From Bdellovibrionales bacterium (GTDB taxonomy: Bacteria > Bdellovibrionota > Bdellovibrionia > Bdellovibrionales > UBA1609): DNA of 64,000 nucleotides. The stretch lies in the NCBI GenBank assembly GCA_965261545.1, contig CBDHDF010000010.1, forward strand, positions 992,001 through 1,056,000, given 5' to 3'. This document shows, one piece after another, positions 7,930-29,321 of the stretch. Made by a program: the position numbers and the translations under genes. The first letter of the stretch is position 1, and each line of letters begins with the position of its first letter. The notes under the pieces were generated by a model that worked only from the letters and a program-made list of their open reading frames with translations, was not told the DNA's origin and did no database searches.

Positions 7930-8202
7930 ATGATTGCAAATATAATCACTAAAAGTATTTCTAGTAGAAACATCAAAAACACTTCCAAATACCTATGTGC
8001 ACTATGCTTGCTTATTACAACGCCATCAGTCCATGCCATTTCTAGTGGCAATAGTTCCGCTGCCAGTGCTGCCAGTTCTGCAGCCAGCGTTGCATCTTTT
8101 AACCAAGCTCTCATAGCCTCCAAACTCAGTGTGACGGCAGCAAGTCTTGCTAGTCAAGCTGCTGTAGAAGCATCTGTGCAAGCCATTGAAGCAACTTTAG
8201 AG
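7930..8202 (+). pseudogene. N-terminal half of an Ala/Ser/Val-rich secreted hypothetical protein, split by the 21-kb nested insertion
   Basis: Signal-peptide-like start. Joins in frame (...AIEATLE|LGRKVV...) to 29322-29678 after removing the insert and one copy of TSD CTTTAGAG, giving 209 aa. Confidence 0.85.
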
Positions 8203-9773
8203 GTAACTATTCAGGGGGTGGGCGAATTCGAGTCATAAATGAGGGAAGTTTTCCTTGAAATAGCATATTTAGAGCATCTTTAGGTTCTATGCCATTTTTC
8301 TGGCAAGTCAGGAGAAAGCTTCGGTTTCTACAAAATGTCTTGGCTCCCATCAACGAACGAAAGCACCCAGATATTTTCTGCTGAACTTTGGTCATTCTCA
8401 GATCATTTTCTGCTATATTATTCGTAAATGGAACTATGGGGTCCTTCATAAAGAGCAAGGTATCATCTTCAAAGTTTCTCAGTCGATCTAGTAAATTTCT
8501 AGATTTGGATTGTTTAACCTTTCCCTTCTTTTTTTTCTCTGTCCTCTCCATTAATGGAGATTCCTTTTCCCCTTCGAAGAGAATATTTCGATATTTCTCT
8601 TTGTAATATTCAATTCGGTCTTGTGAAAGGCATTGGTTCTGCGTATCGTGCACCTCTTTGTTTATTGTCTCTAAAAGAGACTTCATTTCTTTTGCCCATT
8701 TTTGATCATCTTGCTCCCAAGCTCTTTGAAGCTCCCTTAAATGGTGCGCATTGCAAAGGGCATGAATGCAGGAAGTATATGTATAATAAGGTTTCCAATG
8801 GTCATGACAAACAATCCCTGTGTATTTTGGAAGAATTCCCATGCGATCCATAGCCTCTGCGCCTCTTTTTTCGTCCACCTGATAGAGAACCACAGTATCA
8901 TTGGACAAGAGGTGAAACCACAGCCTCTTCCCATTAACATTCACTCCAGTTTCGTCAGCATGAATCAAAGGTGAGTTCAGAAGAGTTTCCTTTGCCCACT
9001 CCTCAAAAGCTTCCAGAGCCTCAAAGGCAGATTTGTTAAAATTGTGTACCGTAGATCCAGCAAGCGATAGACCCCATTGATTAAAGTAACTTGCGACTCG
9101 AAGATGAGGGATTAACTGAAACTGGGACATATAAACTGAGTGAGCTTTCACAGAAGGGCCATATTGAGTTGGGTTATTGATTCCTTCTGGAAAACCTGCA
9201 ACCCACTGATTCCCATCTTGGTCTTCGAGGATTTCTCCTTGATACTCCGTGACATGCACAGAAAGGTCTACCTCAAATACTTGACGCTTTTCAACTCCAG
9301 AAGAAATGTAATCACCTGGAGGAAGTTCCTCTTTATTAATAGAAATGAACTCCACCTTGTCTGGAGTATCCACGGGTTTTAAAGTAGCTCCTTCGTGTCC
9401 GGGTTGTCCTCCTGGCTTCTTACCAGTTTCTTCCTTAGGTTTCTTTTTAGGGCCATTCGGATCTTGAGAAGGGGCAATACTACTGTTTTGACTATTTAAT
9501 TTTTTTTGATTTACTAGAATAGTGATGATTTTGATCAACAACTCAATGGCCACAATAAAAGCGGGAGAAAGGGACTTCTCTTTCTTAAGAAGCTTCCCAT
9601 AGGTGTTCGTGGTTTTTTTCTAATTTTAATTCCGAATTAATGGAAATACTTTTCAAGCCTCCTTTTTTACATAGAGGGAAGTGGGCGATTTATAAATATT
9701 TATAGATGGTATTTTGAGAAATGGACGCAGATTGACATTTGATATCCACGACAAGCCATGTGTTTTAAGAGAC

Positions 9774-10237
9774 TTAATTGTGTAACGAAAGAACTGTGGA
9801 CTTTTGGGAACAACAGAATTTAAATTTCTTTCCACTTCCGCATGGACAGGATTGATTTCTTTCAATTTTTTCGCTTTGGTCATTTTTCTGCTGTGATGCC
9901 GACATATCTTCAGTTACAATTTTTTTTTCTTTTCATCTTCCAAATCCTCATCCAAATTATCAAAAAGAATATCTCCTAGATTCTGGTGAAAGTAACGATT
10001 TTTAAATTGAGATATGAGCATCATAAAAATACATGTAAGAACCAAAAGTGTGAGTGAAGCAAAAAACAAATAAGATGCTTGCATCTGAGTTAATGGGAGG
10101 ATGAGTGCCAGTAAATAACCAAATCCAAATACCAATAAGGAAATAAAAAGAGATATAAAGGATCCCAAAGAAAGTAATATTAAAAGTCCAAAAATCATTG
10201 CTATTTTTTGCTCCTGTCGAATACAATGAATCCGCAT
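9774..10237 (-). pseudogene. IS4 passenger membrane protein with SEC-C motif, frameshifted copy
   Basis: Nearly identical to intact 55309-55773 but one base shorter near 9925, with further substitutions in the SEC-C coding part. Confidence 0.75.
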
Positions 10238-10342
10238 AGATACAAGTGAGTTATCTACAGACTTAATGATTCTCGCGTTAGTATCTTAATAGGTCAAGAT
10301 TAATTGGAGGAAATTTTTATTTTTTAAACGCAGGGGGCAAAT

Positions 10343-11587
10343 ATGAGCACGGAAGCTCAAACACTTAAAACGATCAAAAAATGTTTCAAGAAAGTTATTC
10401 CTGAAAAGGACTCTCGGGCAACCATTCCACCTCTTGAGTTTATTGTGGCTCTTGTCTTGTCATTCCAGGGAGACTCTAAGACATATTCAATAGAGGGGAT
10501 TAGGAGGTTTATGATAAGTCATTTAGGGTTAAGAATTGAAAGACACAGCTTCTGGGAAAGACTCTCTAGAAAAAGATTAAAAAAGCTTCTGAGTAAACTG
10601 GTTGAAATGCTCATGATAAAGCTATCTCATGGAGCTTTTCATGGAAGCAAAGCCATATTATTACAACTGGGAGTCTCAGACGTTCTTCTTGTTGACTCAA
10701 GCACAATAAGCCTTTGGGATGGAGCATCTGAGAATTTTCCAGGGACAAGAACAAACGCAGGAATTAAATGGCACGCTTGTTTCAGTTTATTCAGTGGTAT
10801 AATGACTTGGTTCGAATTAACTCCGTCTTCCACTAACGATAGGAAGTGCTTTCCTGATATAAAGGAACTCGTTGGAAAATTAGTCATCTTTGATTTGGGA
10901 TATTGGGACTATGGCTTATTGTCATCTATTCATGAAGCTAAAGGATTTTTCTTGTCTAGAGTGAAGTCAAATGCCTCTATTCTTATTGATGCTGTTGTTG
11001 AAGGTTTGCCAGATTACTATGTTGGAAAAGAGTTCTCTGATATTAAACTCAAGAAAAAAAACGATGTTGTTGAATTTATAGGCAGTGTCTTGTCCAATGG
11101 TAAATGGGTAAGTTTGAGAATTGTAGGCTTCTGGAATTCCTCCGAAAAACGCTATCATTGGTATTGCACGAATTTAGATGTGGCAGCGGAGTCCATATAT
11201 CCAATTTATCGTTTACGTTGGCAATGTGAACTTATTTTCAAATCTTGTAAGAATTCTTTGAATGCAAATCAGATCACCTCAAACGATCAAAATATCATAG
11301 AGAGTCTTCTTCTTGCTTCATTAGCGGCTCACCTCACATCAAGTGTTGTTTTGAGGATAGGAAGAACTAAACTCAATAAGGAACAAAATGACTCCACATC
11401 GTTTCAAAGAGTTGCTAAGGTTACCGTCTTATTAGCCTCTGATTTTATCAAATATCTCCTAAGCTCATCTCAAAAGTATTTAAATATTTTGATAGAGAAG
11501 ATCAAGATATTCTCCCATGAAATTTATGACACAAACTACCGACGGCGAAAAACATCAATGAATATGGCTAAAAAGGTCTTGCTATGA
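10343..11587 (+). CDS. IS4-family DDE transposase
   Basis: LVDSSTISL, IFDLGY and YRLRWQCELIFK (YREK-like) motifs. Confidence 0.92.
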   Translation: MSTEAQTLKTIKKCFKKVIPEKDSRATIPPLEFIVALVLSFQGDSKTYSIEGIRRFMISHLGLRIERHSFWERLSRKRLKKLLSKLVEMLMIKLSHGAFHGSKAILLQLGVSDVLLVDSSTISLWDGASENFPGTRTNAGIKWHACFSLFSGIMTWFELTPSSTNDRKCFPDIKELVGKLVIFDLGYWDYGLLSSIHEAKGFFLSRVKSNASILIDAVVEGLPDYYVGKEFSDIKLKKKNDVVEFIGSVLSNGKWVSLRIVGFWNSSEKRYHWYCTNLDVAAESIYPIYRLRWQCELIFKSCKNSLNANQITSNDQNIIESLLLASLAAHLTSSVVLRIGRTKLNKEQNDSTSFQRVAKVTVLLASDFIKYLLSSSQKYLNILIEKIKIFSHEIYDTNYRRRKTSMNMAKKVLL

Positions 11588-13874
11588 AAGAATAAAAAAC
11601 CACGAACACCTATGAGAAGCTTCCTGATTTTATTTATGGCTGAAGACACGTCAATATTTTCTATTTTCATACTTACCTTATGAAAATATTAACATGCCTT
11701 TTTTTCATTAAAAAAAATGCACTAGGATTCGTTCTAAGAAGCAAAAGGAATGAGAAGTGCCCCCCGCGACCTATGTTTCACAATCTTTCAATACTATGGC
11801 TCTCAGAGAGTTTAAGGCATATGCAGGAACATATTCGATAAAGAACAAATGAAAGAGGTCGTTTGCTTCAAAAACTTGTCAAGAATTTTTATACTTTTTT
11901 TAAAAAAATTGTTCGAATTAATGCGGCACCCCCTGAATAGTTACTATGAATCTCCGGGGTAGTTTGGACGCACGAATCCACTATCCGTTCTTCGAATTTT
12001 TTCAAATGTCCGAGTTTTTAAATCATCCTACATTACATGAAATCATACTTTTTTAACGCTCTAATCCACCTTGGTGCATTTTTTTTCACCATGAGCTTTT
12101 CATAGTCAATTCCAGGGTCTTTGTAGGGGGTGTCATTACTTATGACTGAATAAACAACTCCCATCATTTTGTGACCAACGGCAATCACTGATCTCTTGTG
12201 CCCACGCCTTATAACAAGTGATTGGTATTTGCCTTTGAATTGTGAATTCGTCTTAATAGCACTATTGGCCATCTCACATACCAACGATTTCACATATGTG
12301 TTCGCTTTCCTCGTTCGTGAAGACTTTTTTTTCCTGCGCTCTCATTATTGGATGGGCAAATCCCCATCCAGGAGCAAAAATTTCCTTTATTTTTAAAAGA
12401 CTTCACATTGCCTCCTATTTCTGCAATCAAAAGCGCTGCACTTAATTCGTCAATTCCAGGTATAGTCTGGAGTAGATGCCACTGCCTTTCATAGGGTTTC
12501 ATACGAATGAAAAGTTCTTCTTCAATTTGAGAGCATTCTTTTTTCAAAAAATCTATTCGATCAAGAATGCGTTGAAGAACAAAACGATTTTCTTCCGTCA
12601 TCTTTCCCGACAGGGCGTAAGAAAATTCTTCGGTCTTTTGACGTAAAGACCCTCTGGCAAGAGACATCAATTTAGAAACTGATCTCTCTCCATTAGCTAG
12701 TTTCTGTCCAGAAAGGCCCATTTTTTGTTCTCTGACACTCCCCATTGAGCCTCCCAATGCCTCAATGGGGGAGTGAGAGTTGGAGATTTGCCACACAAAC
12801 TCTACAGATTAAGGGGAAAAAGGTCTTTAAGCGACTTGCGCCCTAGTTTTTTCGATTTGAAGACGCACCCCTACCTTTGGAAGATTTTAGCACCTTCGAC
12901 CTGGTCCATTGCTGTTATTCCTAATGGATAAATTTAGGTGACAGTTGATAATTCATGTCTTGCCAAGACAACAAAATTATAGGCACAAACGGCATTCTTT
13001 ACATACCTCTTAAAACCATCATGCCCTTTCCAGTAAGCAACTCTCATACCAAAACATCTCTTAAGGAATGAAATAACAGCCTCTATTCCGGCTCTCCAAT
13101 TGAGAAGATTTTTAAAGACCCAAGCACTTTTAACCATCTTTAATATTTTCATTCCTTTTTTTTCTGGGAAGCAAACATCTTTAGCCCCCATCTCTTTGGC
13201 CTCTTCAAGATTTTCTTTTGAAGCAAACCCACCATCTGCACTTACTTTTACAGGGCAAGCCCCATAGGTTTGTGTCACTGAATTCATAACTTTTAAAAAC
13301 ATATCAGAGTCTGCGGGGTTGCCATCAGGGATCTGACAATCTAAAATCATGTTGCTTTGCCCTGAGGTCAAAAAGATTTTATGCCCAAACTCGACTTCTC
13401 TTTGCCCCTTTACAATAATGTCTGTATGCGGTTCAAAGATGGATAGGACCTTTTTTTCAGAAGATACTTTTTTCCCCTCAATAACTCTTTTTTGAGTTTG
13501 AAAGATGATTTTTTCCAGGTAGAAGGCAACATTTTCTAACTGTTTTAGACTCTTTTTCAAAGCATTCATCTTCACACATTTTTGTTCTTTTTTTATCTTT
13601 CTGATGGTATCAGGTAATCCTTTGTTCAATTTGGTAGCGATTTTTAAAAGCTCCTTATAGCAAGGTAGTCTTTCCGCATCATTTTTGGAATTATTAATTT
13701 TGTAAAGCAAGGTTTTTGCTCTCTTAAGATCTTCTCTTGAAATAAGTCGCCAAAAATCTTTCATGACATTTTTACGAACTTTTTTAAATTCTCTTTCTGT
13801 AACTCTTATGCAGTCATATAAAAGCGATGCATCCGTTGGATGATGAATATTTGATCACTCATGTTGATACCCCC

Positions 13875-15920
13875 TTAGTAACGTAGCTTTTTAATTGATC
13901 CGGACTTAAGTTTTTTAAAGTCAGATATGGTTTTTTTCTTATCTGGAAAGAGATAAGCCTTTGTTTTCTCGTGTTTTTTGACAATGATCCTCCCTTGTTT
14001 AATATGGTGATAAATCCAATGAACTTTAACATCAATAAGTGCTGCAATTTGAGATGTTGTGAGGCTTCCCTCGACTTTGGTCGGAAAAGAGTGCTTTCGA
14101 TTCCGATAGATTTTATTGTTTAGTCTATAGGACTTCACAGTATTTCTGAGAAAAGTGGTATCCATTGGTGATCTGAATCCTTTTTGGGTCAATAGTTTGG
14201 CAATATCTTCATCAGACACCCCAAGCTTGACCTGATGCGCAATTATTTTCTTTATCGTTTCAGAAGATGACAGTTCATCAAAAGATCCAACTTTGATTGG
14301 AATGCTAGCTTCTGTTGTATCTCCTCCAATCCAAACAATTCTCAGTGCAACCATATCTCTTTTCTTTCTGTGAATGACAACCTTTTCAACCAATGTTCTA
14401 AGAATTTTCTTTTTCATGTCTTTGGTCAATATCTTATCCTCCCATAGCGAAGGTAGTTTTTGATTCAAATCTGAAAATTCTCTTTTCATTTTTTGAGAGA
14501 TCACAGTTGGAATACGCTGTTCATTCTTAACCCTCTCTAGGTGATCTTCGGCTTTTTTAAGTATTACTAAAGCCTCTTCCCATTGTGTTTCTAATTCATC
14601 TGCAACAAGTCTATTCTCAGGGTCTACTTTGCGATACCTCTTTTCTACCAGTTGAGCTTCATACCTTAAACGCTGAATTTGCTGAATGTGTGATTTGTAA
14701 ACCTCTTGGTCAATTTTTGACTTATTTTCTAAAGCCTTGGCATACAAGTCTAGCTCGACAGGGGAAAGAACCTTAAAAAAAGCGTTTACTACATAATCAT
14801 CGATTGGATCTGTAGGAATGAATTGGCAAGTAGGTTCCCGATGTTGTTGGCGTAGATAGTTGCATAAGTATCGAGTTGCTGTTTTATACTGCACTGACAT
14901 TTTGTGGCCACATTCTCCACAATAGACTATCCCATGTAAGAGGGCCTTACCAGGGCGAGGTATGCCTCTTGTTTTATTACGAGTATATTCAGTGTAGTTG
15001 TCTTTTAGAATTTCTTGTATCTTTAAGAATGTATTCCAATCGATATATTTAGGATATTTATCTTTCACAACAATTTTCCATTCATTAAGTGGAAGCTTTG
15101 TACGCTTAAGTTTTCCAGCTAAGTCTTTTCTACGGTATTCAGCTTTGCCATATACAAAAGTTCCGCTATAAGCTGGATTCTTCAAAATAGAAAGTATGGC
15201 TGCCTTGGATGTTTTTTTCCAATGAATACTTTTTACAAAATCAACTCTTGGAAGTAAGAGGTTGTTATCGTTAAAAAATCGCGACACCTTACCGGCTGAT
15301 TTCAGTTTTAAGAATATAGTAAATACTAAATTTATGCGATCTTGTAAATCTTTATTTGGATCTTTTAGCACTTTACCTTGTTCTGTTCGAATAAAACCAA
15401 CTGGTAATTTAAGAGCTAAATCTCCTCGCTTGGCTTTGTTGAGAAGACCTGCTGTTAATCTATTGCGTATCGTAAATAATTCCATTTCTGAGAGTTGACC
15501 TTTAAACCCGAGTAACATTCTTCCATTAACATTAGAAGGGTTATAAATAGACTCTCTATCAGCAATGAGGCAATTCTTAAAAGCACACAGATCAAGTAAT
15601 TGGTACCAGTCCGTACAGTTTCTAGATAGACGAGTGACATCGTACGATAGAATAATACCAATTTTTTCCAAGGTCACTTCTGCAAGGATATTCTTGAAGC
15701 CTTCTCTAAACTGTATACTACTTCCTGTGATCCCCAAATCATCATCGACAATTTCAATACTATCTTCTTGCCAACCTAATTCAGTAGCTCTTTGCCTGAG
15801 TGAGTATTGAAGGTCGAGACTTTCTTTGTTTTTGATGGCTTGCTGAGGGGTCGACTGTCTGATGTATATTATGGCTTTTCTCTTTAAGTGAATAGGTGTA
15901 ATCAATTCCGATGTTTTCAT
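13875..15920 (-). CDS. Large serine recombinase with Zn ribbon, coiled coil and C-terminal HTH-like extension (Y4bA-like)
   Basis: YIRQST catalytic motif, D.TRLSRN, LKNPAYSG, CGECG, VDPENRLVA.ELE..W. Start taken at MKTSELIT (15920). Confidence 0.92.
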   Translation of the reverse strand: MKTSELITPIHLKRKAIIYIRQSTPQQAIKNKESLDLQYSLRQRATELGWQEDSIEIVDDDLGITGSSIQFREGFKNILAEVTLEKIGIILSYDVTRLSRNCTDWYQLLDLCAFKNCLIADRESIYNPSNVNGRMLLGFKGQLSEMELFTIRNRLTAGLLNKAKRGDLALKLPVGFIRTEQGKVLKDPNKDLQDRINLVFTIFLKLKSAGKVSRFFNDNNLLLPRVDFVKSIHWKKTSKAAILSILKNPAYSGTFVYGKAEYRRKDLAGKLKRTKLPLNEWKIVVKDKYPKYIDWNTFLKIQEILKDNYTEYTRNKTRGIPRPGKALLHGIVYCGECGHKMSVQYKTATRYLCNYLRQQHREPTCQFIPTDPIDDYVVNAFFKVLSPVELDLYAKALENKSKIDQEVYKSHIQQIQRLRYEAQLVEKRYRKVDPENRLVADELETQWEEALVILKKAEDHLERVKNEQRIPTVISQKMKREFSDLNQKLPSLWEDKILTKDMKKKILRTLVEKVVIHRKKRDMVALRIVWIGGDTTEASIPIKVGSFDELSSSETIKKIIAHQVKLGVSDEDIAKLLTQKGFRSPMDTTFLRNTVKSYRLNNKIYRNRKHSFPTKVEGSLTTSQIAALIDVKVHWIYHHIKQGRIIVKKHEKTKAYLFPDKKKTISDFKKLKSGSIKKLRY

Positions 15921-16017
15921 ATATAATCTCCTCAATGGCTAAAGTTAAGTCTTTGATGACTTGCTTTTGAATTTCTTTTGGCAGTCTTGGCCAGACATCT
16001 TTTGGTGTAATTGACAT
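15781..16017 (-). CDS. Small hypothetical protein of LSR element A
   Basis: VWPRLPKEIQKQVI helical ORF overlapping the recombinase start. Resembles small ORFs that often precede such recombinases. Confidence 0.45.
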   Translation of the reverse strand: MSITPKDVWPRLPKEIQKQVIKDLTLAIEEIIYENIGIDYTYSLKEKSHNIHQTVDPSASHQKQRKSRPSILTQAKSY

Positions 16018-16211
16018 AGTTGCTCTTCCAGTTGTTGAGTCAGTGAAATTAGCTCCTGAATTGCAACTATACCAAGTTTGCTTGGGGCCTGCCTATCGTA
16101 GAGATTGGGGTTCAGATTGGTAGAAGCCAATGGTATGCGTAGCGTCATGTGGTTCTTGTATTGAACAAAAGCAAAAGTAGATTTTTTCTGATTTTTAGGT
16201 ATGGAAATCAC
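15945..16211 (-). CDS. Small hypothetical protein of LSR element A (Y4bD-like)
   Basis: First ORF of the element, with a LRIPLASTNL motif. Confidence 0.5.
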   Translation of the reverse strand: MISIPKNQKKSTFAFVQYKNHMTLRIPLASTNLNPNLYDRQAPSKLGIVAIQELISLTQQLEEQLCQLHQKMSGQDCQKKFKSKSSKT

Positions 16212-18148
16212 CTTGAATGACTTCCTATAAAGGGGATGGGAGGGGTCCGTGACCCTTAGCTCTCTAAAACCTCTGTCGTTGACGGGGGTATTAAGTAATG
16301 GACTCGTTTGATTTCGTCACTGTACTGTCCAATCTCATTTTCTTACACGGCTCAATCTTTTGATCTCTTGCATCTGAAACTAAAGAGGCGCTAATAATTC
16401 CCCAAGTTTCTTCACTTATTTGAACAATCAAGTCCTGTAAGGTGGAGTGAGCGTAATTTTCTTCCAATTCAAGGCCCAGAAAAGCTCTGGTGGATACTGA
16501 ATCGACAAGATTAAAGGCTAACGCACGATAGGAAAGACCTCTTATGGATTTAAGAATAGCCACCTTGAGAACTTGCTCCGATGTCATACCAATATCACCA
16601 GAATCTTTCTTTTCTTTAACAAGGTCTTCATGAACCATATGGGCAAACTCTGGATGGCGATCAATGATGTTATTAATTTGCTGCAATTCTGTACTGAGTT
16701 GGTGGTTAGGATATTGGGAAAAGAGTCCCAACTGTGTCTTCTTCAAATGGCGCATAGTCCCCCCTTTGGTGAAAGTTTCTCTTTAATTTTTATATTAACA
16801 TACGTTTTTTTGAGGGAAAAAAGTGAGCAAGGATGTCTTTTAAGAAGAAAAAAATCAGAGAGGTTCTCGGAGAACATGGATAAGAATTCTACCTCATAGA
16901 GAGGTTCCCACGCCTCCTAAAACCTACATAAAAAATAAATGAAGAATAAAATATCAAAAATTATTTCTCTGAAAAAACACGTCAAGTATTTTTTGAAGTT
17001 GATGCGCAACGTAATGTTATTTCCCTGAAGGAGGTTTGAAATCACCACGGTGGAAACACAGGTTGATCCAACTCTTCCTCTCATATCAAGTAACCAGTTG
17101 ATAGCCACATAAGTCACTGAAAGGGAGGGGCTGTGAAAGGTTCGTCAAGAGAGGGGGGGGAACTTATTTTATTTTTCCGTTTTATGTAAGTAACTGAATT
17201 TACACGGATTATGTTTGATGGACTCCATTTTAAAGCATAAAATCTAAAGGGAAGGCATGTAAATACTTAAAACTACTTAACTTTCTTCCCTGGACAGGAA
17301 CTAGCTATGGCACGAATCATGGCCATACCAGATACGCAGTCAGCTTTAGACATTGCATAGGTTAAACGAATGCCTGAATATTCAAGAACCTTATACATAC
17401 GATTTTGTTCCGAAGATATTTGGCGGATCGTTTTTGTACGATAACGAGCCAAAAGTCTAATAGAACGAATCTCACGTGGAGGAATGAAGCTAGCTCTTAG
17501 AAGACCACAAGCACCAAGCTCTGCAATCCACTGGCTATCCAACACGTCAGTTTTTTTACCAGTAATATTTTTGACATGAAAGGCATTGATAACATCTACT
17601 TCATAACCTTTTTCTGTCAAATCATCGTATAAAGAATTCCAATAAATCCCTGTGCTCTCAAAAAGAACTCTCTCAACCTTATGTGGCTTCATCCAAGAGC
17701 GCATTCTAGGAAAATTTTTTGGAAAATTCTTGAACTCTTTTGTGAAAAACTTCTTCTTACCGTCTTCCACTTTGACAATCGTACACATCAACATATGTTG
17801 ATGAACATCTATTCCACAAACAGAACTATAAATAATATCCACATGACTCCTCCTTTCTGTTAGAAAAAAAGAAGGTGATAAAACTAGAGCCTTGGGATTT
17901 TGCCATAAATTCTAAAGCGAAAATAGGTCAACTTACTATGAATCTCCGGGGTAGTTTGGACGCACGAATCCACTATCCGTTCTTCGAATTTTTTCAAATG
18001 TCCGAGTTTTTAAATCATCCTACATTACATGAAATCATACTTTTTTAACGCTCTAATCCACCTTGGTGCATTTTTTTTCACCATGAGCTTTTCATAGTCA
18101 ATTCCAGGGTCTTTGTAGGGGGTGTCATTACTTATGACTGTAAAATTG

Positions 18149-20058
18149 GTTACGGTAGGAATGCGTGTTGCCACGCACCCCCCGCACAGATCCGGACGTG
18201 CTCGTTAAAGCATCCGGCTCCTACTTCAGGTGGTACCGCATAGCGAACCTATCTGTTGGCCACGGGTGGCGTATGGATATACGAGGCCAGAATAGACGAA
18301 TCATTCTATCCAACCTCTTCCACGAGAATCTCCGTCCACGCTGTGAGCGTCGTCGGATGGCTTTCATCCAAGCACTCCTGATTGCGCAAATAAATTTTCG
18401 TAGGTACACCGTACTTCCTGGAACCGCAAAATAATTGAGCCAGCCTTTGATGACCAAACCCAACCACTTTGCACATTCCGCTAGGTCCCTCGTGTAGACT
18501 CGTTTTCTCAGACTCAGCTTCAGGTGCTGTAAGGTCCGGCAGACTCTCTTGGATATGGGTTTACGCCCTATCCTAAAGCCTCCTTTCCTCGTGCGCACAC
18601 AAAAGTGAGTGAATCCTAAGAAATCAAAAGTCTCGGAGTGACCAAGACCTCGTCGGCGGCAATTTGCATTTGCAAATCGACCGAACTCTATGAGGCGAGT
18701 TTTCCCCGGATGTATTTCTAGAGAAAACTCCTTAAGCCTGCGCTTCAGATCATTGAGGAAGCGTTCAGCTTCCCCCTTGTATTGAAAGCCTACGACAAAG
18801 TCATCGGCGTAGCGAACAAATATCATGTCCCCTGTGGCATGGTCCTTGCGCCATTTCTGCATCCATAAATCCAACACATAATGTAAATATATGTTGGCGA
18901 AGATAGGGGAAATATTTGAACCTTGAACGGTCCCTCTCCCTGTGTCTTCTAAGACGCCTTGAGATAGCACTCCGCACTTGAGCCACTTTTCAAAGAGACG
19001 AATGAGTCTCTCATCTCCGATGAGGTGTTTTAGAAAGCGAATTAGAGTCTTTCTATCCACGCTATCGAAGTAGGATTTTATATCCGCATCCAATATGTAG
19101 CTGATCTTCCTACGCTCTATTCCGTAAGCCAGAGCATCCAACGCATTATGCGCTCCACGCCCTGGACGGAATCCGTAGCTATAACCGAGGAAATGTTCCT
19201 CGTAGATGGGAGAGAGGATGCTGTCTACAACGGCCTTCTGGACAATCTTGTCCTCCAAGGCCAGGACACCCAAGGGTCTTGTGCCCCCGTCTGACTTGGG
19301 TATTTCTACCCGCAAGACAGGTTGCCCTTTGTAAGCACCCGTGTGGACCCGACGATGTAAATCGAACAGGTTTTGCACGAGGTTCTCGCCATACTCCTTC
19401 CATGTTAAATGGTCCACTCCCGCACTGGCTCCCCTATTCAAATAGAGGTAAGCCAAGTGGAGGGCTTCCACAGATACATGGTGAAGCAAGCAAGTGAGCT
19501 TACCATCCTTTCTCTTTGCTGCTATACGGACTCGCTCCGTCGCCTGTGACACCTTTTCCCAACTCTGTGTTCGGCAGATGCTTTGACGGATTGAGTTCCC
19601 TTCAGTTCCACCCCTTCGCTCCAAGGACTCCGCTGGGCTTGTAGGCCCTTTGTTCGTCCTCTTCATCGCTACTATGAGTGGATCCGATTTCTTTATTTCG
19701 TTCATGGGTTACGGTTACCTCCTTTCCCATGTCGCCCGTCGCACATGACGGGGTTAAATAAAGACCTCCCGAGGTCCCGAGATAAGATTCATGTATGTGC
19801 CAGTTTCTACGACGCCGTGGAGTCACCCACCAACTCACCATAGCGCTGGTGGGTATGTTGCGTTCGGCTACCATGACAGCCTCCGCACTCCAGAGTTCGG
19901 CATTTTCGACGCTCAATTATTTGGCCCACACACACCCCTACCGATACATCGCTTCGGCCTCACGGCCGACAGCGCACGGCTTGGGGAGAGAAGTGGTCGG
20001 TTGACCTTCCTCTCGGGGGACTCTAACCCCCTATCTTATCTCAGTTCGCCCGGCGAAC
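18149..20058 (-). mobile_element. Group II intron, copy 1 (1910 nt, intact)
   Basis: RT/maturase ORF. Domain V GAGCCGGATGC...GCACGTCCGGATC and domain VI ending CCTACCGTAAC. 5' end GTTCG. Confidence 0.95.
18221..19705 (-). CDS. ltrA: Group II intron reverse transcriptase/maturase, no endonuclease domain
   Basis: RPLG, SYGFRPGR, DADI..YFD, QGS.ISP, YADD, FDFLGF, GWLNYF. Ends HPWP..RF. Confidence 0.95.
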   Translation of the reverse strand: MNEIKKSDPLIVAMKRTNKGPTSPAESLERRGGTEGNSIRQSICRTQSWEKVSQATERVRIAAKRKDGKLTCLLHHVSVEALHLAYLYLNRGASAGVDHLTWKEYGENLVQNLFDLHRRVHTGAYKGQPVLRVEIPKSDGGTRPLGVLALEDKIVQKAVVDSILSPIYEEHFLGYSYGFRPGRGAHNALDALAYGIERRKISYILDADIKSYFDSVDRKTLIRFLKHLIGDERLIRLFEKWLKCGVLSQGVLEDTGRGTVQGSNISPIFANIYLHYVLDLWMQKWRKDHATGDMIFVRYADDFVVGFQYKGEAERFLNDLKRRLKEFSLEIHPGKTRLIEFGRFANANCRRRGLGHSETFDFLGFTHFCVRTRKGGFRIGRKPISKRVCRTLQHLKLSLRKRVYTRDLAECAKWLGLVIKGWLNYFAVPGSTVYLRKFICAIRSAWMKAIRRRSQRGRRFSWKRLDRMIRLFWPRISIRHPWPTDRFAMRYHLK

Positions 20059-21275
20059 CATGGCATTGCCCGCACCAGTTGGTTACGGTAGGAATGCGTG
20101 TTGCCACGCACCCCCCGCACAGATCCGGACGTGCTCGTTAAAGCATCCGGCTCCTACTTCAGGTGGTACCGCATAGCGAACCTATCTGTTGGCCACGGGT
20201 GGCGTATGGATATACGAGGCCAGAATAGACGAATCATTCTATCCAACCTCTTCCACGAGAATCTCCGTCCACGCTGTGAGCGTCGTCGGATGGCTTTCAT
20301 CCAAGCACTCCTGATTGCGCAAATAAATTTTCGTAGGTACACCGTACTTCCTGGAACCGCAAAATAATTGAGCCAGCCTTTGATGACCAAACCCAACCAC
20401 TTTGCACATTCCGCTAGGTCCCTCGTGTAGACTCGTTTTCTCAGACTCAGCTTCAGGTGCTGTAAGGTCCGGCAGACTCTCTTGGATATGGGTTTACGCC
20501 CTATCCTAAAGCCTCCTTTCCTCGTGCGCACACAAAAGTGAGTGAATCCTAAGAAATCAAAAGTCTCGGAGTGACCAAGACCTCGTCGGCGGCAATTTGC
20601 ATTTGCAAATCGACCGAACTCTATGAGGCGAGTTTTCCCCGGATGTATTTCTAGAGAAAACTCCTTAAGCCTGCGCTTCAGATCATTGAGGAAGCGTTCA
20701 GCTTCCCCCTTGTATTGAAAGCCTACGACAAAGTCATCGGCGTAGCGAACAAATATCATGTCCCCTGTGGCATGGTCCTTGCGCCATTTCTGCATCCATA
20801 AATCCAACACATAATGTAAATATATGTTGGCGAAGATAGGGGAAATATTTGAACCTTGAACGGTCCCTCTCCCTGTGTCTTCTAAGACGCCTTGAGATAG
20901 CACTCCGCACTTGAGCCACTTTTCAAAGAGACGAATGAGTCTCTCATCTCCGATGAGGTGTTTTAGAAAGCGAATTAGAGTCTTTCTATCCACGCTATCG
21001 AAGTAGGATTTTATATCCGCATCCAATATGTAGCTGATCTTTCTACGCTCTATTCCGTAAGCCAGAGCATCCAACGCATTATGCGCTCCACGCCCTGGAC
21101 GGAATCCGTAGCTATAACCGAGGAAATGTTCCTCGTAGATGGGAGAGAGGATGCTGTCTACAACGGCCTTCTGGACAATCTTGTCCTCCAAGGCCAGGAC
21201 ACCCAAGGGTCTTGTGCCCCCGTCTGACTTGGGTATTTCTACCCGCAAGACAGGTTGCCCTTTGTAAGCACCCGT

Positions 21276-23213
21276 TACTCCTCGGACACAATAGACAACT
21301 TTTCCATTGAAATTTCCATAAATATATATAATCATTCACTTTATGCAAGTGGTCGTAAATATGCTCACTATCGTTGGCATCCACCTGAGGATTCTTCCCA
21401 TTTAGCTTCGAACCATAGTCAAAGGAATGATAATGGCCCACCAAACAAAACATCAAAATCCATGGACAGCTCAGCTAAAAAGTGTCTATCAAAGCGACCA
21501 AACCACACGGATTCAACAGACATACGAAGTTGTTGTTCCAAAAATAAAGAAACAATTAAAGCAGAAAGTAAAACAACAGAAAATAATGGAGGTTAAAAAT
21601 GGAAACATCAGTAGCTCTTTATTGTCGAGTGTCCTCAGATAAACAAGCTCAAGAGGGAACCATTGATTCACAGATTTCTAGTCTTCACGATTTCGCTAAG
21701 GAACACAATTTTTGTGTAGAGGAGGATCTTATATTTATGGATAATGGTGTGAGTGGCGCCACCCTTGTTCGTCCTGCTTTAGACTCTCTTCGCGACAAAG
21801 CTTTTTCTGGGGAGGTTACAAAGGTACTTGTGTTATGTCCAGACAGATTAGCTCGTAAATATGCCCATCAATTGATTCTAATTGAAGAATTTCAGAGGCT
21901 AGGTGTTGAAATTATTTTTTCTAATAGAGATATTACAAATTCACCCGAAGATCAGCTTTTGCTACAAATACAAGGAGTCATTTCAGAATATGAAAGAGAA
22001 AAAATTATGGAAAGAAGTCGAAGGGGTAAACTTCAAAAGGCTTCTAAGGGCTTTGTTAGCGTTTTATGTGGAGCCCCCTATGGTTATATATATATTCTGA
22101 AAACAGACTCCGCTGACGCACGATATGAAATCCATCCAGAAGAGTCTAAAGTTGTTAAAAATATTTTTCAAATGTATTGCCGAAACAAACTAAGTATTAG
22201 AGCAATTGCAAAGGAATTAAATATAAGGGGGGTGCCTACTAGAAGACAACAAGGTATTTGGGGGCGTTCAACTATCTTGTGTATGCTTAAAAATCCCGCT
22301 TATTATGGACAAGCTGCTTTTAGAAAGACTATCAAGGTAGAAAGGTTGCGTCCAACCAAGTTCGCAAGAGACAATAATTTTTATCCAAAAAAACATAAAT
22401 CAAGTTCTTCCAATCGAAATAAAAAGGATTGGATATATATTCCCGTTCCATCTATAATTTCTTCAAAAACTTTTCAAGATGCGTCCAGCCAATTGGAAGC
22501 TAACAAAAAACTTTCCTCTCGGAATAATAAAAAATATGAGTATTTGTTAAGTGGTCTTTTACGATGCAAAGAGTGTGGTTATTCGATCTATGGCAAACCT
22601 GCTTCTCACTCAAGGTATAAGCTTTGTTATTATCGCTGCATGGGACAAGATGGTTATAGGTGGCCAGCTAAAGGTAGAGTTTGCTCATCTCATCCCGTAA
22701 GAGTTGAAGTTTTAGATGACTTAGTTTGGGAACAAACAGTTAAATTACTTGAAAATCCTCAGACAGTTATAGATGAGTATACAAGTAGAATTCATGAGCA
22801 AAAAGGTGAACAACAATCATTGGAAAAATTAATTGTAAAAAAGGCTCAGGAGATTCGTCAAATAACACATGAAAAGGAACGTCTCTTGGATCTTTATCAA
22901 AATGGAACTCTAAATCTATCAGAAATAGAGTCACGATTAAAAAAAATAAGAGGAAAAATAAAGCAACTTGAAAATGAAAAGCAATCTTTAGAGTATGAGC
23001 AAAGGCAAGAAGGACAACAACTACAGCTTGTAGATCAACTCCAAGAATTCCAAAAAAAAGTGAGTGCCAATTTAAAGGTATTGAGTTTTGAGCAAAAAAA
23101 GGAGATTGTAAGGCTACTGGTGAAGGAGGTTGAGGTGAACATTAAGGCAAGTGAAATTGTAGTTCGACACGTTGTGCCAACCTCCAAAAGTTTGCCATTG
23201 TGTCCGGGGAGTA
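21276..23213 (+). mobile_element. Minimal LSR element B (1938 bp plus GT core)
   Basis: GT at both junctions (21274-75, 23214-15). Terminal IR TACTCCTCGGACACAAT / ATTGTGTCCGGGGAGTA (16/17). Confidence 0.9.
21427..21642 (+). CDS. Small hypothetical protein upstream of the recombinase (possible accessory/directionality factor)
   Basis: AAGGA upstream, overlaps the recombinase start, contains QTYEVVVP. Function is inference only. Confidence 0.4.
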   Translation: MIMAHQTKHQNPWTAQLKSVYQSDQTTRIQQTYEVVVPKIKKQLKQKVKQQKIMEVKNGNISSSLLSSVLR

Positions 23214-23233
23214 GTGTGGACCCGACGATGTAA
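21599..23233 (+). CDS. Large serine recombinase; stop codon supplied by flanking target DNA
   Basis: YCRVSS, D.GVSG...RPAL, PDRLAR, PYGY, LKNPAYYG, CKECG. The last 20 nt lie outside the element. Confidence 0.93.
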   Translation: METSVALYCRVSSDKQAQEGTIDSQISSLHDFAKEHNFCVEEDLIFMDNGVSGATLVRPALDSLRDKAFSGEVTKVLVLCPDRLARKYAHQLILIEEFQRLGVEIIFSNRDITNSPEDQLLLQIQGVISEYEREKIMERSRRGKLQKASKGFVSVLCGAPYGYIYILKTDSADARYEIHPEESKVVKNIFQMYCRNKLSIRAIAKELNIRGVPTRRQQGIWGRSTILCMLKNPAYYGQAAFRKTIKVERLRPTKFARDNNFYPKKHKSSSSNRNKKDWIYIPVPSIISSKTFQDASSQLEANKKLSSRNNKKYEYLLSGLLRCKECGYSIYGKPASHSRYKLCYYRCMGQDGYRWPAKGRVCSSHPVRVEVLDDLVWEQTVKLLENPQTVIDEYTSRIHEQKGEQQSLEKLIVKKAQEIRQITHEKERLLDLYQNGTLNLSEIESRLKKIRGKIKQLENEKQSLEYEQRQEGQQLQLVDQLQEFQKKVSANLKVLSFEQKKEIVRLLVKEVEVNIKASEIVVRHVVPTSKSLPLCPGSSVDPTM

Positions 23234-25035
23234 ATCGAACAGGTTTTGCACGAGGTTCTCGCCATACTCCTTCCATGTTAAATGGTCCACTCCCGCACTG
23301 GCTCCCCTATTCAAATAGAGGTAAGCCAAGTGGAGGGCTTCCACAGATACATGGTGAAGCAAGCAAGTGAGCTTACCATCCTTTCTCTTTGCTGCTATAC
23401 GGACTCGCTCCGTCGCCTGTGACACCTTTTCCCAACTCTGTGTTCGGCAGATGCTTTGACGGATTGAGTTCCCTTCAGTTCCACCCCTTCGCTCCAAGGA
23501 CTCCGCTGGGCTTGTAGGCCCTTTGTTCGTCCTCTTCATCGCTACTATGAGTGGATCCGATTTCTTTATTTCGTTCATGGGTTACGGTTACCTCCTTTCC
23601 CATGTCGCCCGTCGCACATGACGGGGTTAAATAAAGACCTCCCGAGGTCCCGGGATAAGATTCATGTATGTGCCAGTTTCTACGACGCCGTGGAGTCACC
23701 CACCAACTCACCATAGCGCTGGTGGGTATGTTGCGTTCGGCTACCATGACAGCCTCCGCACTCCAGAGTTCGGCATTTTCGACGCTCAATTATTTGGCCC
23801 ACACACACCCCTACCGATACATCGCTTCGGCCTCACGGCCGACAGCGCACGGCTTGGGGAGAGAAGTGGTCGGTTGACCTTCCTCTCGGGGGACTCTAAC
23901 CCCCTATCTTATCTCAGTTCGCCCGGCGAACCATGGCATTGCCCGCACTGATTGGCATGACTGATTCCCCTTAGCATAGCGTCATTGATGTTCTATAAAG
24001 ACCTCCAATCTTTAACCAAGGAGGTCGAAATGAGAACAAAGATGGATCATGAGCGTTACACAAAAATAAAATCATTAATAAAGGCAAATATTCCCGACCG
24101 AGAAATCAGTCGCCGCATGAAATGCTGCACCAAGACTCTTAGAAAGATAAGACGTGGTCTTTTAACAGACCCCAAGGATTGGAAGACCCAAAGAGAAATT
24201 CCCCCTTGGTCTTACGGTATAGATTGGAAGATTATTGAGAAGGAGATTGAGGATAGGCATTGTTTAAGTGACGTTTGGGAGGAAAAATTTCTGAAGGTCA
24301 TTAGCTACCCCCAGTTTACGAGGGAGTTTCATAAGCAATTTCCAAAAGCTGGCAAAAGGATTATTACCTTGCGTGATTTTCAGCCAGGCCACCAAGTTGA
24401 GGTTGATTACGCAGGATTTCAGCCAGAGTGGATCGATGAAGACCTTAATATTCATAAGGCCCATATATTTTGCTCAAATCTATGTTTCTCTCAGCGTATT
24501 TTTGCTTATGGCTCTTTGAGCGAATCTAGTGAAGATTTTCTTCACGCTCACGTTCTGATGTTTGAATATTACGGTGGGGTTCCGAGAGTGGTTGTTCCTG
24601 ATAATTTAAAGACTGGAGTGAACACACCCCATTTGTATGATCCAGAGTTGAATAAATCCTACCAAGAGCTTTTGGAACACTATGACACGGTGGCTGTTCC
24701 CGCTCGAGTTCGTCGTCCCCAGGATAAAAGCCTTACTGAGAATGCCGTGAAGCTCGTTACAAGGGCCCTCAGGTTTATGTACAGACGAGAGACCTTCACC
24801 AGTCTGGATCAAATTAATAAGGCTTTAAGGGAGGTGTGCGAGAAGATAAATGCTCGCCCTCACACAAGATTTAAGGTCTCTCGCAATGAAAAATTTCAAC
24901 GAGAGGTAAAAACTTTAAAACCCTTGCCTTCTTTTCCCTACCGGTGGGGACGTTGGGAGAAGAAAAAACTCCACCAAGACTGTCATGTGAGCGTTGAATC
25001 CAACTTCTACTCGGCTCCGTTTCAGCACCGAGGGG

Positions 25036-25085
25036 TGTTAGGCGCCAATTAAAATTGGCCATTTTTAGAAGCCGTCGCCAATGAA
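25036..25085 (+). mobile_element. Orphan terminal fragment of a second, probably IS21-like, element
   Basis: TGTTAGGCGCCAATTAAAATTGGCC...GTCGCCAATGAAAA: starts TG, has an internally repeated CGCCAAT.AAAA motif, and matches neither flanking element. Confidence 0.5.
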
Positions 25086-26129
25086 AAACGGCGTACATTA
25101 AACTTTTTTCTCATTTTATCAACAATATCTGAAAGCGTCTTGCCTTCAAAAGTATTACCAGGGAAAACCTCAAAACCTAAAGGGATGCCATCCCGATTCA
25201 CCAACAAACCAAAGACAACTTGGGTGCAGTCTGATCGTCTCTCTTTACTATAGCCAAATTGACGAAGTTTCCCTAAGTCTGTTCTTGTACTCTCGAAGCG
25301 TAAGGTTGTTAAATCATACAACACAATGTCTACTTGGAAATTAAATAAATCTCGCCCCACCCAATAAAGCGAGTTCTCTATTTCATCCTTATGGGAGGCA
25401 AGTAAGTCCATAGACCGATAAATATGCTGGAGACTCAAATCACCCTTAATCATGTCTGGGTAAAAAGATTTTTGCCAATACTCAAAAACCTTTAACTTGG
25501 AACTAGGAGCAATAAATCGGCTGGCAACTAAGGTAAAAATCACCTTACATAAATCAAATTGAACTTTCTCATGAGAATCTTTTATGTCTTTGAGGGTCTT
25601 ATTGATACCCAGTTGATCAAACAACTTTTGTAAAATCAGCAAGGGACCCAAAATGAAAGTCTCTTCGATGTAAAGCTCCTTAGCCAATTGACTCACAGTG
25701 AGAAGCTCTCGGTGGCGGGATACGGCCTGCGCCAAACTATTAATCTTATCCTCTCCTCCTTCCAGCGCGTCATGCGAGCCTTGCGCACTGATAAAACTGC
25801 GCCAAACTATTAATCTTATCCTCTCCTCCTTCTCCAGCCTTACCTAAGGACATGAGCATGCGTTTTTTGGATTTGCCTTTTTCTCTGTAGGACTCCACAA
25901 GGTGGTAGTAGCACTGACCTTTTGAGTTTTTAGTCGTTTGGATGTACATGAGGATATTTTCTACATATTTCTATGATATATCAATATTTAAAACGATAAA
26001 ATCCTATTTTGTTTTCTACACTTTTTTTACGTCAATTTTAATTTTTCCAGCAGCTACCATTATATTTCAGTACAACCCCAATTTCTGGAAATTTCGCATT
26101 TTAACGCAGATGCTGCTGTCAAACTCGGG
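25086..26129 (-). mobile_element. Truncated IS1634 (left end and 5' part of transposase)
   Basis: Near-identical to 54050-55021, including the TIR. Breaks at ...KFNVRRF and carries a 70-bp insertion. Confidence 0.9.
25727..25832. repeat. 36-bp direct repeat flanking a 34-bp unrelated insert (repeat-spacer-repeat geometry)
   Basis: CTGCGCCAAACTATTAATCTTATCCTCTCCTCCTTC at 25727-25762 and 25797-25832. Single copy and no insert in the sister element (54347-54382). Confidence 0.92.
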
Positions 26130-26601
26130 ATTTACTTTCAAAAACAGCTCCTCGCTCGCCACAAGAGGACCAAAGGTAAACTCGGAGAGTACATCACCAA
26201 AAACGAACACCTCCCGGAGCCCAGTCGCGCCTACAAGGAGGCCACTCCCCAGAACATTCTTATTCAAGCAAGTATGATTTGTAAAGAGCTTGAAAACTTC
26301 ATTGAGGAGCTTTTTCAGGGTGGGACCATTGAAAATCTCAGAAGAGCTATGGGCTTTGTAAGCTCCTGTCACAAAGAAATCCAGAAAGAGGGCAAGGAAA
26401 AGTCCCTTCCTCTCATTATCAAAGCCCTTGAGGACTGCAAGCAGTGGGAGAAAAGGAGGGTTAGATATTTTCAGCAACAACTCCATTTCTATAAAGGGCA
26501 AAAAATAAAAAAGGTGAACGAGAAAATAGATCGTAAACAAGGCAACCCTTATTTGCGACATAACGAAAATCCAAATAACCAAAGCCCCAAGGAGGTGCCA
26601 G

Positions 26602-27354
26602 ATGGATGAAGTACAAATCAAAAACCACATGCATGAGTTGAAGCTCTATGGAATGTTAGACAGCCTTGAAGTGGCGCTGGATAACACAAGCCACAAGACT
26701 CAAGCATTGGATCTATTGAACGAGCTGTTATTTGCAGAAGTGGAGGCTCGGAAAATCCAATTCAGCCAAAGACTTCTCAAGACCTCAAAGCTGCCTCACA
26801 AGGTCAGAGGTGAGGCATTTGACCACCATGCCAAAAGGTCTATTAGTAAAAGAGAGGTGGATAGGCTTCAAACTTTATCATGGGTTAAGGAGCAAAGGTC
26901 TATCATTGTCGAAGGGCCAACGGGGGTGGGTAAAACCTTCTTGGCCCAGAGCCTGGGACACCAGTGTTGTCAATCCAGAATCTCCACACTGTTTATAGAC
27001 ATCAACATATTTCTAGAAACCTTGGCCCTGGAAAGGCACTCAGGAAGGTATTTGAACTACTTGCGTCGTCTGGGCCGCCCCCAAGTGTTAATTTTTGATG
27101 ACTTTGGATTAAGGAAGTTCTCCCAAAGTGAATCCACAGACTTCTGCGATATTTTAAAGTTTCGTTCCGATAGGTCCACCGTTATTACCACTCAACTGCC
27201 AATAACGCATTGGTCAGAAATTATTGATGATGAGGTGCTGGCAGATACTATCATCGACCGTTTGAAGCATACCGCCATAAAAATTTTACTTAAAGGAGAG
27301 AGTTATCGAAAAATCCAGGGAACAAAACTTGACCAGGACTTTTCCCTAAAATAG
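26602..27354 (+). CDS. istB: IS21 helper ATPase IstB
   Basis: GPTGVGKT Walker A, LIFDDFG Walker B, ADTIIDRL, GESYRK. Confidence 0.93.
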   Translation: MDEVQIKNHMHELKLYGMLDSLEVALDNTSHKTQALDLLNELLFAEVEARKIQFSQRLLKTSKLPHKVRGEAFDHHAKRSISKREVDRLQTLSWVKEQRSIIVEGPTGVGKTFLAQSLGHQCCQSRISTLFIDINIFLETLALERHSGRYLNYLRRLGRPQVLIFDDFGLRKFSQSESTDFCDILKFRSDRSTVITTQLPITHWSEIIDDEVLADTIIDRLKHTAIKILLKGESYRKIQGTKLDQDFSLK

Positions 27355-28609
27355 GAAGAAATAGGATTACAAATTAACTAAAATTTTCCCCAGAAATGGG
27401 AAGGAAAATCATCAATGACGCATTGAAATAGGGAAAGTGAGGGTAATGGGTGCAACCAGTGCGGGCAATACGCGCAATTGTACACTTATGACTGAATAAA
27501 CAACTCCCATCATTTTGTGACCAACGGCAATCACTGATCTCTTGTGCCCACGCCTTATAACAAGTGATTGGTATTTGCCTTTGAATTGTGAATTCGTCTT
27601 AATAGCACTATTGGCCATCTCACATACCAACGATTTCACATATGTGTTCGCTTTCCTCGTTCGTGAAGACTTTTTTTTTCCTGCGCTCTCATTATTGGAT
27701 GGGCAAATCCCCATCCAGGAGCAAAAATTTCCTTTATTTTTAAAAGACTTCACATTGCCTCCTATTTCTGCAATCAAAAGCGCTGCACTTAATTCGTCAA
27801 TTCCAGGTATAGTCTGGAGTAGATGCCACTGCCTTTCATAGGGTTTCATACGAATGAAAAGTTCTTCTTCAATTTGAGAGCATTCTTTTTTCAAAAAATC
27901 TATTCGATCAAGAATGCGTTGAAGAACAAAACGATTTTCTTCCGTCATCTTTCCCGACAGGGCGTAAGAAAATTCTTCGGTCTTTTGACGTAAAGACCCT
28001 CTGGCAAGAGACATCAATTTAGAAACTGATCTCTCTCCATTAGCTATGGCACGAATCATGGCCATACCAGATACGCAGTCAGCTTTAGACATTGCATAGG
28101 TTAAACGAATGCCTGAATATTCAAGAACCTTATACATACGATTTTGTTCCGAAGATATTTGGCGGATCGTTTTTGTACGATAACGAGCCAAAAGTCTAAT
28201 AGAACGAATCTCACGTGGAGGAATGAAGCTAGCTCTTAGAAGACCACAAGCACCAAGCTCTGCAATCCACTGGCTATCCAACACGTCAGTTTTTTTACCA
28301 GTAATATTTTTGACATGAAAGGCATTGATAACATCTACTTCATAACCTTTTTCTGTCAAATCATCGTATAAAGAATTCCAATAAATCCCTGTGCTCTCAA
28401 AAAGAACTCTCTCAACCTTATGTGGCTTCATCCAAGAGCGCATTCTAGGAAAATTTTTTGGAAAATTCTTGAACTCTTTTGTGAAAAACTTCTTCTTACC
28501 GTCTTCCACTTTGACAATCGTACACATCAACATATGTTGATGAACATCTATTCCACAAACAGAACTATAAATAATATCCACATGACTCCTCCTTTCTGTT
28601 AGAAAAAAA

Positions 28610-28796
28610 GAAGGTGATAAAACTAGAGCCTTGGGATTTTGCCATAAATTCTAAAGCGAAAATAGGTCAACTTACTATACGTCCATACACTCAGAGTGCA
28701 GGTACATGCGTGGGTTCGATCCAAAGCTCAAGACCATGTTACTTCACGGAATTAAAATTACCAATCTATTCAACGGCCACTCATCTTATCACCTTC
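28610..28796 (-). ncRNA. Putative IS110 bridge/seek RNA region
   Basis: Non-coding DNA just upstream of the IS110 ORF, closed by a perfect 11-bp IR GAAGGTGATAA (28610-28620) / TTATCACCTTC (28786-28796). Contains ATAGTAA matching the element circle junction. Limits are approximate. Confidence 0.5.
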
Positions 28797-29313
28797 CAAT
28801 AATGTTATTGCTTTATCCTTTATTGTATCGGAATCATACATGACAAAAATACCATCAAAAGTCCAGAGTAACTAAAAGAGGCCAATTATATAGACCAGCG
28901 AAGCTGTCCACCGAGTTGCTTCGTGCAAAGAAGTGGGGGCCTAGAAAGATTCATGGGCGTGGGTGGGGAAGCAAGGCGCCCCCATGAATGTTACTATACG
29001 TCCATACACTCAGAGTGCAGGTACATGCGTGGGTTCGATCCAAAGCTCAAGACCATGTTACTTCACGGAATTAAAATTACCAATCTATTCAACGGCCACT
29101 CATCTTATCACCTTCCAATAATGTTATTGCTTTATCCTTTATTGTATCGGAATCATACATGACAAAAATACCATCAAAAGTCCAGAGTAACTAAAAGAGG
29201 CCAATTATATAGACCAGCGAAGCTGTCCACCGAGTTGCTTCGTGCAAAGAAGTGGGGGCCTAGAAAGATTCATGGGCGTGGGTGGGGAAGCAAGGCGCCC
29301 CCATGAATGTTAC
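28672..29313. repeat. Tandem duplication of a 319-bp non-coding IS110 end
   Basis: Units start with TTAC at 28672 and 28991; closing TTAC at 29310. Confidence 0.95.
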
Positions 29314-29321
29314 CTTTAGAG

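Follow-up and report, generated by a model that had tools for sequence, protein, structure and literature searches.

How does a mobile element come to sit inside an identical copy of itself, with the crossover at the bases that encode a guide for its own end? We investigated this question at a nested insertion sequence (IS) of the IS110 family, found in a 64,000-bp stretch of a Bdellovibrionales genome (contig CBDHDF010000010.1, positions 992,001 to 1,056,000; hereafter the window, to which plain coordinates refer). A 1,704-bp IS110 copy is interrupted there by an identical copy, the outer one occupying 11945-17936 and 28995-29313 and the inner one 17937-28994 (Table 1). An intact copy of 1,704 bp (genome contig C10:577807-579510) was used as the reference for identity. 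The outer middle (635/635), the outer tail (319/319), the inner head (204/204) and the inner body (1511/1511) were 100% identical to it. The outer head (11945-12699) differed by a single base, a deletion in a run of T; short-read contigs carry an extra T that is missing from the window. The pieces follow each other as coding part, coding part, 319-bp end, 319-bp end, the two 319-bp units being adjacent and identical; this confirms the order that the original prediction had read from the window.

The outer copy is split between CAACTTAC and TATACG. The split falls at a TT core within ATAGTAA, the seven bases encoding the guide for the element's own end, and split site and circle junction have TTACTAT in common. 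This motif is present once in the element, among 194 TT sites on that strand, so the coincidence is not one of chance. The right nest junction equals the circle junction over 14 bp. The two junctions are reciprocal and each was found only once in the genome, in agreement with the nested geometry that had been proposed; the split site, the common TTACTAT and the 11-bp inverted repeat around the putative RNA gene were also as the original prediction gave them. Three of its statements had to be corrected. It placed the structure at 17930 to 29313, and we found that the outer copy begins at 11945, about 6 kb further left, at the tip of an IS66-type element. It held that the inner copy stays whole; a 9.3-kb IS21 nest interrupts the transposase gene of that copy around codon 366 of 400, and the RNA gene alone is whole. 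Finally, it took TTAC as the crossover core, and the core is TT, since other junctions retain only TT of the target.

We mapped the genome (4.3 Mb, 11 contigs) and identified one IS110 element with fixed ends in dozens of near-identical copies. There were 37 left junctions: 15 at IS66-type tips, 3 at other target-like sites, 10 head-to-tail, 6 inside the element and 3 in nearby flanks, two of the last being repeats of one site. The exact IS66 tip CCCCTGAATAGTTAC was occupied by IS110 at 14 of its 32 occurrences, and a short-read contig carries the same IS110-IS66 tip junction. The normal (programmed) target of the element is the terminal repeat, or tip, of IS66-type elements. This target reads TGAATAG-TT-AC and the donor junction reads ATGAATG-TT-ACTAT; 36 of 38 right junctions continue with AC, and the sites that could be reconstructed keep only the TT of the target, which sets the core at TT. 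The circle junction that had been predicted exists as the 10 head-to-tail junctions, which would be consistent with a circular intermediate, the free circle itself being only predicted.

Among the guide sites, 1 of 37 was followed by the element start and 1 of 36 was preceded by the element end. Of the six internal self-junctions in the genome, the nest alone has a donor match. The coding region holds another two-ended self-insertion, nested at reference position 812 (C7:263185-266588), for which there is no donor match. The original prediction had considered that the 319-bp unit or the coding part might move independently. We rejected both as independent elements, as the intact copies were all 1,704 bp with fixed ends, and a 319-bp unit alone or duplicated was not found elsewhere in the genome among the matches listed.

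Two other kinds of structure were observed in the genome. One-ended duplications (C7:121217-128203, 226765-232573 and 311413-314876; C11:725957-729288) join the guide-matched end to a nearby TT inside the element or its flank, and duplicate the element with up to 348 bp of flank. In addition, a non-coding element of approximately 110 bp has the two ends of IS110 (C6:3530-3660, C3:20850-20985, C2:233500-233640, C11:725840-725965, C10:576430-576620). Some of its copies lie at IS66-like tips, and it is likely a non-autonomous partner moved in trans.

The element is a member of the IS110 group of the IS110 family, with a predicted bridge RNA. Its transposase matched PF01548 and PF02371 (Transposase_20) above the cut-off, and in an alignment of 35 homologues D12, E62, D99 and S299 were invariant and D102 was present at at least 90%. 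The non-coding end upstream of the start codon measures approximately 410 bp, compared with approximately 90 bp downstream of the stop. Recombination takes place at the short TT core with no longer target duplication (TT at 37/37 left junctions and at the reconstructed sites). In 8 of 40 related genomes the only homologues were distant ones (at most 41% identity), and a single-protein locus search gave one distant locus. In the element and in relatives L021-L145, the partner of a short sub-terminal repeat was seen by eye to lie some 40 bases into the upstream end and to follow a conserved hairpin.

Folding of 28606-28800 gave z = -2.99, with none of 200 shuffles as good, for a segment chosen post hoc. 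The whole 405-nt end gave no folding signal (z = -0.66), the signal being limited to the stretch bounded by the inverted repeat. Compensatory changes were present in 9 of 11 consensus pairs (conserved stems, 22 sequences). A hand-drawn structure was 77.5% paired, compared with 31-48% when slid, and the closing stem of the donor loop as drawn was weakly supported (58% paired). The region folds like a two-loop bridge RNA, and we predict an RNA gene here, from which the RNA would be produced. At the gathering score, Rfam left this RNA unmatched in 11000-33000, group II introns and a tRNA being the sole matches. An nhmmer search with the single non-coding end gave no clear relative (best foreign match E = 0.0024), after which the upstream ends of relatives were taken from protein-anchored loci. 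In 28550-29350 neither a sigma-70-type promoter nor a terminator was found. The long target guide, UGAAUAG, is present once on that strand of the element and is identical to the flanking sequence in 16 of the 37 left junctions (the 15 IS66-type tips and one other). Elsewhere in the upstream end, a 65-bp stretch (28848-28912) is approximately 95% identical to 59422-59485, part of another repeat family with dozens of copies in the genome.

The donor guide was identified by comparison with relatives. The alignment of 35 homologues was used to fetch 160 loci, of which 137 had usable flanks and were clustered to 67. A downstream end was recognisable in 33 clusters, and the 34 without one were left out of the count. 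In 25 of these 33 clusters, one being this element, an exact copy of the terminal 7-mer is present within the 160 bases that precede the gene, and 17 different 7-mers are represented; shuffled pairings gave 2.3 ± 1.4 matches, with a maximum of 8. These matches occur in a common context and at a single position of the alignment, just behind a hairpin that shows compensatory changes. Neither the best fold nor the consensus pairs AUAGUAA, although two of its bases are often paired in the ensemble. Judging from this covariation with element ends, ATAGTAA is the donor guide and lies in a loop, as had been proposed, and not in a paired stem. Only one donor arm shows clear covariation in the clade. 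For the other arm, GCAUGUA matches 5/7 here, and by eye its column looks conserved whatever the end sequence of the relatives. Our first count (80/89) was redundant and contained two artefacts (L048, L084); it is superseded by 25/33.

With geometry, core, guide identity and normal target established, the mechanism can be considered. We favour, with about even confidence, a donor-guided one-step insertion at the element's own donor-guide-coding DNA. The IS110 recombinase, loaded with RNA presumably made from the upstream end, would join a donor junction (a circle or a head-to-tail ATGAATG-TT-ACTAT) to the donor-guide DNA of a resident copy. The donor loop, not the target loop, would bind the site as a one-armed donor, in a donor-donor or donor half-match reaction, and one two-ended crossover at TT would yield both junctions, probably in a single step. 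Guide-coding DNA necessarily reads core plus guided donor arm (TT-ACTAT), therefore the donor loop can bind it. The split site is the sole 5/5 donor arm among the 194 same-strand TT sites, the next best reaching 3/5. It scores 1/7 on the other donor arm and 2/7 on the long target arm, so that the core and one donor arm are matched. A sole perfect donor arm, a poor target and a naive chance of about 3% favour the donor loop, and the second two-ended nest at reference 812 indicates that true self-insertion occurs in this genome. On this reading the nest would be a rare by-product of the element's recent, sloppy burst and not a programmed feature.

Several observations weigh against donor guidance. 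The event is single. The other five internal sites and two flank sites score 0-3/5 on the donor arm, from which it follows that the element recombines at poor sites without a donor match. The split site belongs to a set of 22 that show the loose left pattern of the other events; in 4 of them, the split site included, the core is also followed by A, and 2 of the 4 were used (the pattern was set post hoc). Donor arm and short target arm both read TT-AC, which makes the two loops indistinguishable at this site. Among the matches listed, short-read contigs (four runs, one sample) neither bridge nor contradict the nest. We also did not observe recurrence: the element's own start interrupted none of 61 guide sites in related genome G041 and none of 50 in G042-G044, and for one subfamily the end-to-guide junction gave 0 matches in genome contigs vs 49 normal sites. 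This is a weak test, because exact flanking context is needed and short-read assemblies lose such nests; within it, the four multi-copy related genomes and the contig search gave no sign of a hotspot. Tandem copies do occur in the genomes of the multi-copy relatives. Of the proposal that donor-guide DNA served as a self-targeting substrate, the geometry and the guide identity stand; causation by the guide match does not follow from them, as five other internal self-junctions have no donor match.

The same one-step nested insertion could have been directed by the target loop through relaxed pairing (TT, AC on one side and A two bases before the core), the guide-coding location being a coincidence aided by the common TT-AC. 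We consider this possible, if somewhat doubtful. Eight non-canonical sites score 0-4/7 on the target arm, and the split site with its 2/7 is typical of them; the flank site CAAGGAC-TT shares the AC-TT left side without a donor match, that strand of the element has only 7 TTAC sites, and AC follows the core at nearly all right junctions. If any TT were usable, however, the chance for six internal events to reach the sole perfect donor arm would be approximately 6/194, that is 3%. Several steps might also have led to the final sequence, with guide-coding DNA still the substrate: a head-to-tail dimer would lose a 319-bp minicircle that re-enters at the far end, or two one-ended duplications would be combined, one that stops at the site and another that begins at guide DNA acting as a false end. 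One-ended duplications and dimers are frequent in this genome: 10 of 37 left junctions are head-to-tail, and a reciprocal partner is lacking for 4 internal and 3 flank junctions. At IS110 loci, repeated non-coding units in tandem (n = 468) as well as partial circles have been described (10.64898/2026.08.14.744561), and circles of the RNA gene alone are known for ISPpu9 (PMC12288879). Such routes need two events at one rare site of one locus, and neither junction is found alone elsewhere in the genome; we judge them quite unlikely.

Misassembly of identical repeats is very improbable in our estimation. The genome is dense in repeats, scattered one-base indels among the copies resemble long-read errors, and neither nest junction is bridged by any of the short-read contigs listed. 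A misassembly would, however, have to produce a reciprocal pair of novel junctions at a distance of 11 kb. The 8-bp duplication bracketing the outer limits closes, as do the duplications round the inner nests, and a second nest of the same type is present in the genome. Homologous recombination of a circle was rejected by reasoning, as it would yield head-to-tail dimers and not the observed order. The inner and outer copies could not be dated from variants, because most of these are one-base indels resembling assembly errors. A broader form of the donor-guided insertion would make the DNA encoding the donor guide an intrinsic hotspot that active families strike far more often than expected by chance, with no safeguard between self and non-self. 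Hits would inactivate full RNAs, leave target-loop-only RNA, and create a 319-bp unit of the RNA gene that has a complete 14-bp donor junction and is able to circularise and move alone, a route to guide-only selfish modules. We regard this as unlikely.

As to consequences, the 319-bp offset suggests that the second 319-bp unit contains the 5' portion of the interrupted RNA gene (29115 to 28991). The outer RNA gene would thus keep the whole target loop and the guide 7-mer and lose the closing stems. For CazIS110, a target-loop-only RNA is reported to support one transfer step (10.1101/2025.10.25.684509). The right nest junction is without the short sub-terminal repeat. By analogy with the RNA gene of ISPpu9 (PMC12288879), the 319-bp unit might circularise. 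Approximately 35 intact RNA genes lie elsewhere in the genome, so the event is without evident cost to the family. More generally, the DNA of any bridge-RNA gene necessarily contains a perfect match to the core and one arm of its own donor. If half-matches suffice, as recent biochemical work indicates, bridge-RNA elements and the editing constructs derived from them are able to turn on the cassette that encodes their guide, a behaviour known from CRISPR-associated transposons. The present locus offers a clear natural case in which both junctions can be read. Its weight is limited to that of one event, in which sequence does not separate donor guidance from relaxed targeting and for which the related genomes searched gave no recurrence.

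The surroundings of the nest were analysed as well (Table 1). The 8-bp duplication CTTTAGAG flanks the whole composite of approximately 21 kb (IS66 and nest), which argues for correct assembly of the outer limits. Both transposase genes of the nest are broken by later insertions (12700-17301 in the outer gene, the IS21 nest in the inner one), and short-read contigs show the common form of the IS110 element without the 18141-27483 stretch. Within these insertions and beyond them, several identical group II intron copies were observed (18146-23948 and 30534-32452), of which one follows immediately on another and one is interrupted by a serine-recombinase element. There are also two distinct genes for large serine recombinases (13875-15935 and 21599-23233), each inserted into another mobile element. 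Seven 18-bp tandem units at 37988-38131 are probably a coding repeat.

Table 1. Features of the IS110 nest, its predicted RNA gene and its surroundings (window coordinates).
Position	Strand	Feature	Basis or detail
8195..8202		left copy of 8-bp duplication CTTTAGAG	
8203..11944	-	IS66-family element, split by another IS at 9598-11614; right tip ends TGAATAG-TT-AC	DDE_Tnp_IS66 E=1.5e-49, open reading frame 8207-9553
11945..12699	-	outer IS110, short downstream end and 3' part of transposase gene (reference 1-756)	one-base deletion in T run
12700..17301		later insertion in outer gene: IS that itself contains a serine-recombinase element	
17302..17936	-	outer IS110, 5' part of gene and 3' half of split RNA gene (17871-17934)	635/635 identity
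17933..17939	+	left nest junction: outer GGTCAAC, core TT (17933-17934), inner end ACTAT	once in genome
17937..18140	-	inner IS110, short downstream end and last ~34 transposase codons	204/204 identity
18141..27483		IS21-family element in inner gene, holding group II intron copies, serine-recombinase element and further IS fragment	flanking 8-bp duplication CTTATGAC
27484..28581	-	inner IS110 transposase gene, codons 1 to ~366 of 400, DEDD RuvC and catalytic-serine domains	PF01548 E=4.5e-23, PF02371 E=3.8e-21
28610..28796	-	predicted bridge RNA gene of inner copy, intact, closed by 11-bp inverted repeat 28610-28620 / 28786-28796	fold and conserved stems
28672..28678	-	donor guide AUAGUAA (3' strand of donor loop), site of outer copy's split	covariation with element ends; unpaired
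28676..28994	-	first 319-bp unit, upstream non-coding end of inner copy	identity to intact copy
28739..28745	-	putative short target guide ending GUAA (3' strand of target loop)	inferred: matches core and AC of targets; aligned with conserved position in relatives
28766..28772	-	long target guide UGAAUAG (5' strand of target loop)	7/7 match to IS66 tip; mostly unpaired
28991..28997	+	right nest junction: inner end ATGAATG, core TT (28991-28992), outer ACTAT-ACG	once in genome
28995..29313	-	second 319-bp unit, upstream end of outer copy	319/319 identity
29314..29321		right copy of 8-bp duplication CTTTAGAG	

We compared the element with known systems. IS4321/IS5075 of the IS110 family reportedly target the terminal repeats of Tn21-type elements; the host element here is IS66-type. 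A close likeness is to IS621 (PMC11208160, PMC11208158), which also has a DEDD recombinase, a long upstream non-coding end, a two-loop RNA of similar size, a dinucleotide core, guides matching the target and its own end, and a short sub-terminal inverted repeat. Unlike IS621, with its CT core, the element uses TT/AA. The guide with the sense of the downstream element end stands here after the hairpin, in the 3' strand of the donor loop, whereas the left donor guide (LDG, A123-C130) of IS621 precedes the stem loop (PMC11208158). In contrast to IS621, clear covariation was obtained for only one donor arm, and tips of IS66-type elements serve as the target. The reversed guide order relative to IS621 was also observed in the clade loci L021-L145.

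Donor-donor recombination, between two donor-binding loops (DBL-DBL), has been described for IS621 in vitro (PMC11208158). A single donor arm is enough, 50 of 168 insertion sites being RD-only (10.64898/2026.08.31.748434), and for IS622 in human cells 91.3% of the insertions resembled the donor more than the target (10.1101/2025.05.14.653916). The split site resembles these events in matching the core and one donor arm and not the target. The published half-match cases are laboratory events at genomic look-alikes, and in the parts covered none is on guide-encoding DNA. Expanded natural IS110 loci (10.64898/2026.08.14.744561) are also similar: occupied loci are entered, full or partial modules and non-coding units stand in tandem, internal boundaries show one-sided donor matches, and there is no target immunity; in the sections covered the boundaries are not placed on guide-coding DNA. 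In the literature on IS110 and bridge RNA that we searched, we did not find guide-coding DNA described as a recombination substrate, and preprint insertion tables may hold such events. Nesting, tandem non-coding units, one-sided donor matches and donor-donor and half-match reactions are already published; what we did not find in that literature is the guide-coding site as the substrate.

A similar phenomenon is known for CRISPR-associated transposons that insert into their own spacer (PMC12765450), where guide-coding DNA is likewise mistaken for a target; that case involves different enzymes, an engineered plasmid and the target guide rather than the donor guide. In summary, the nest looks like a single natural instance of a side reaction known from the laboratory, at a conceptually interesting site, and not like a new system.

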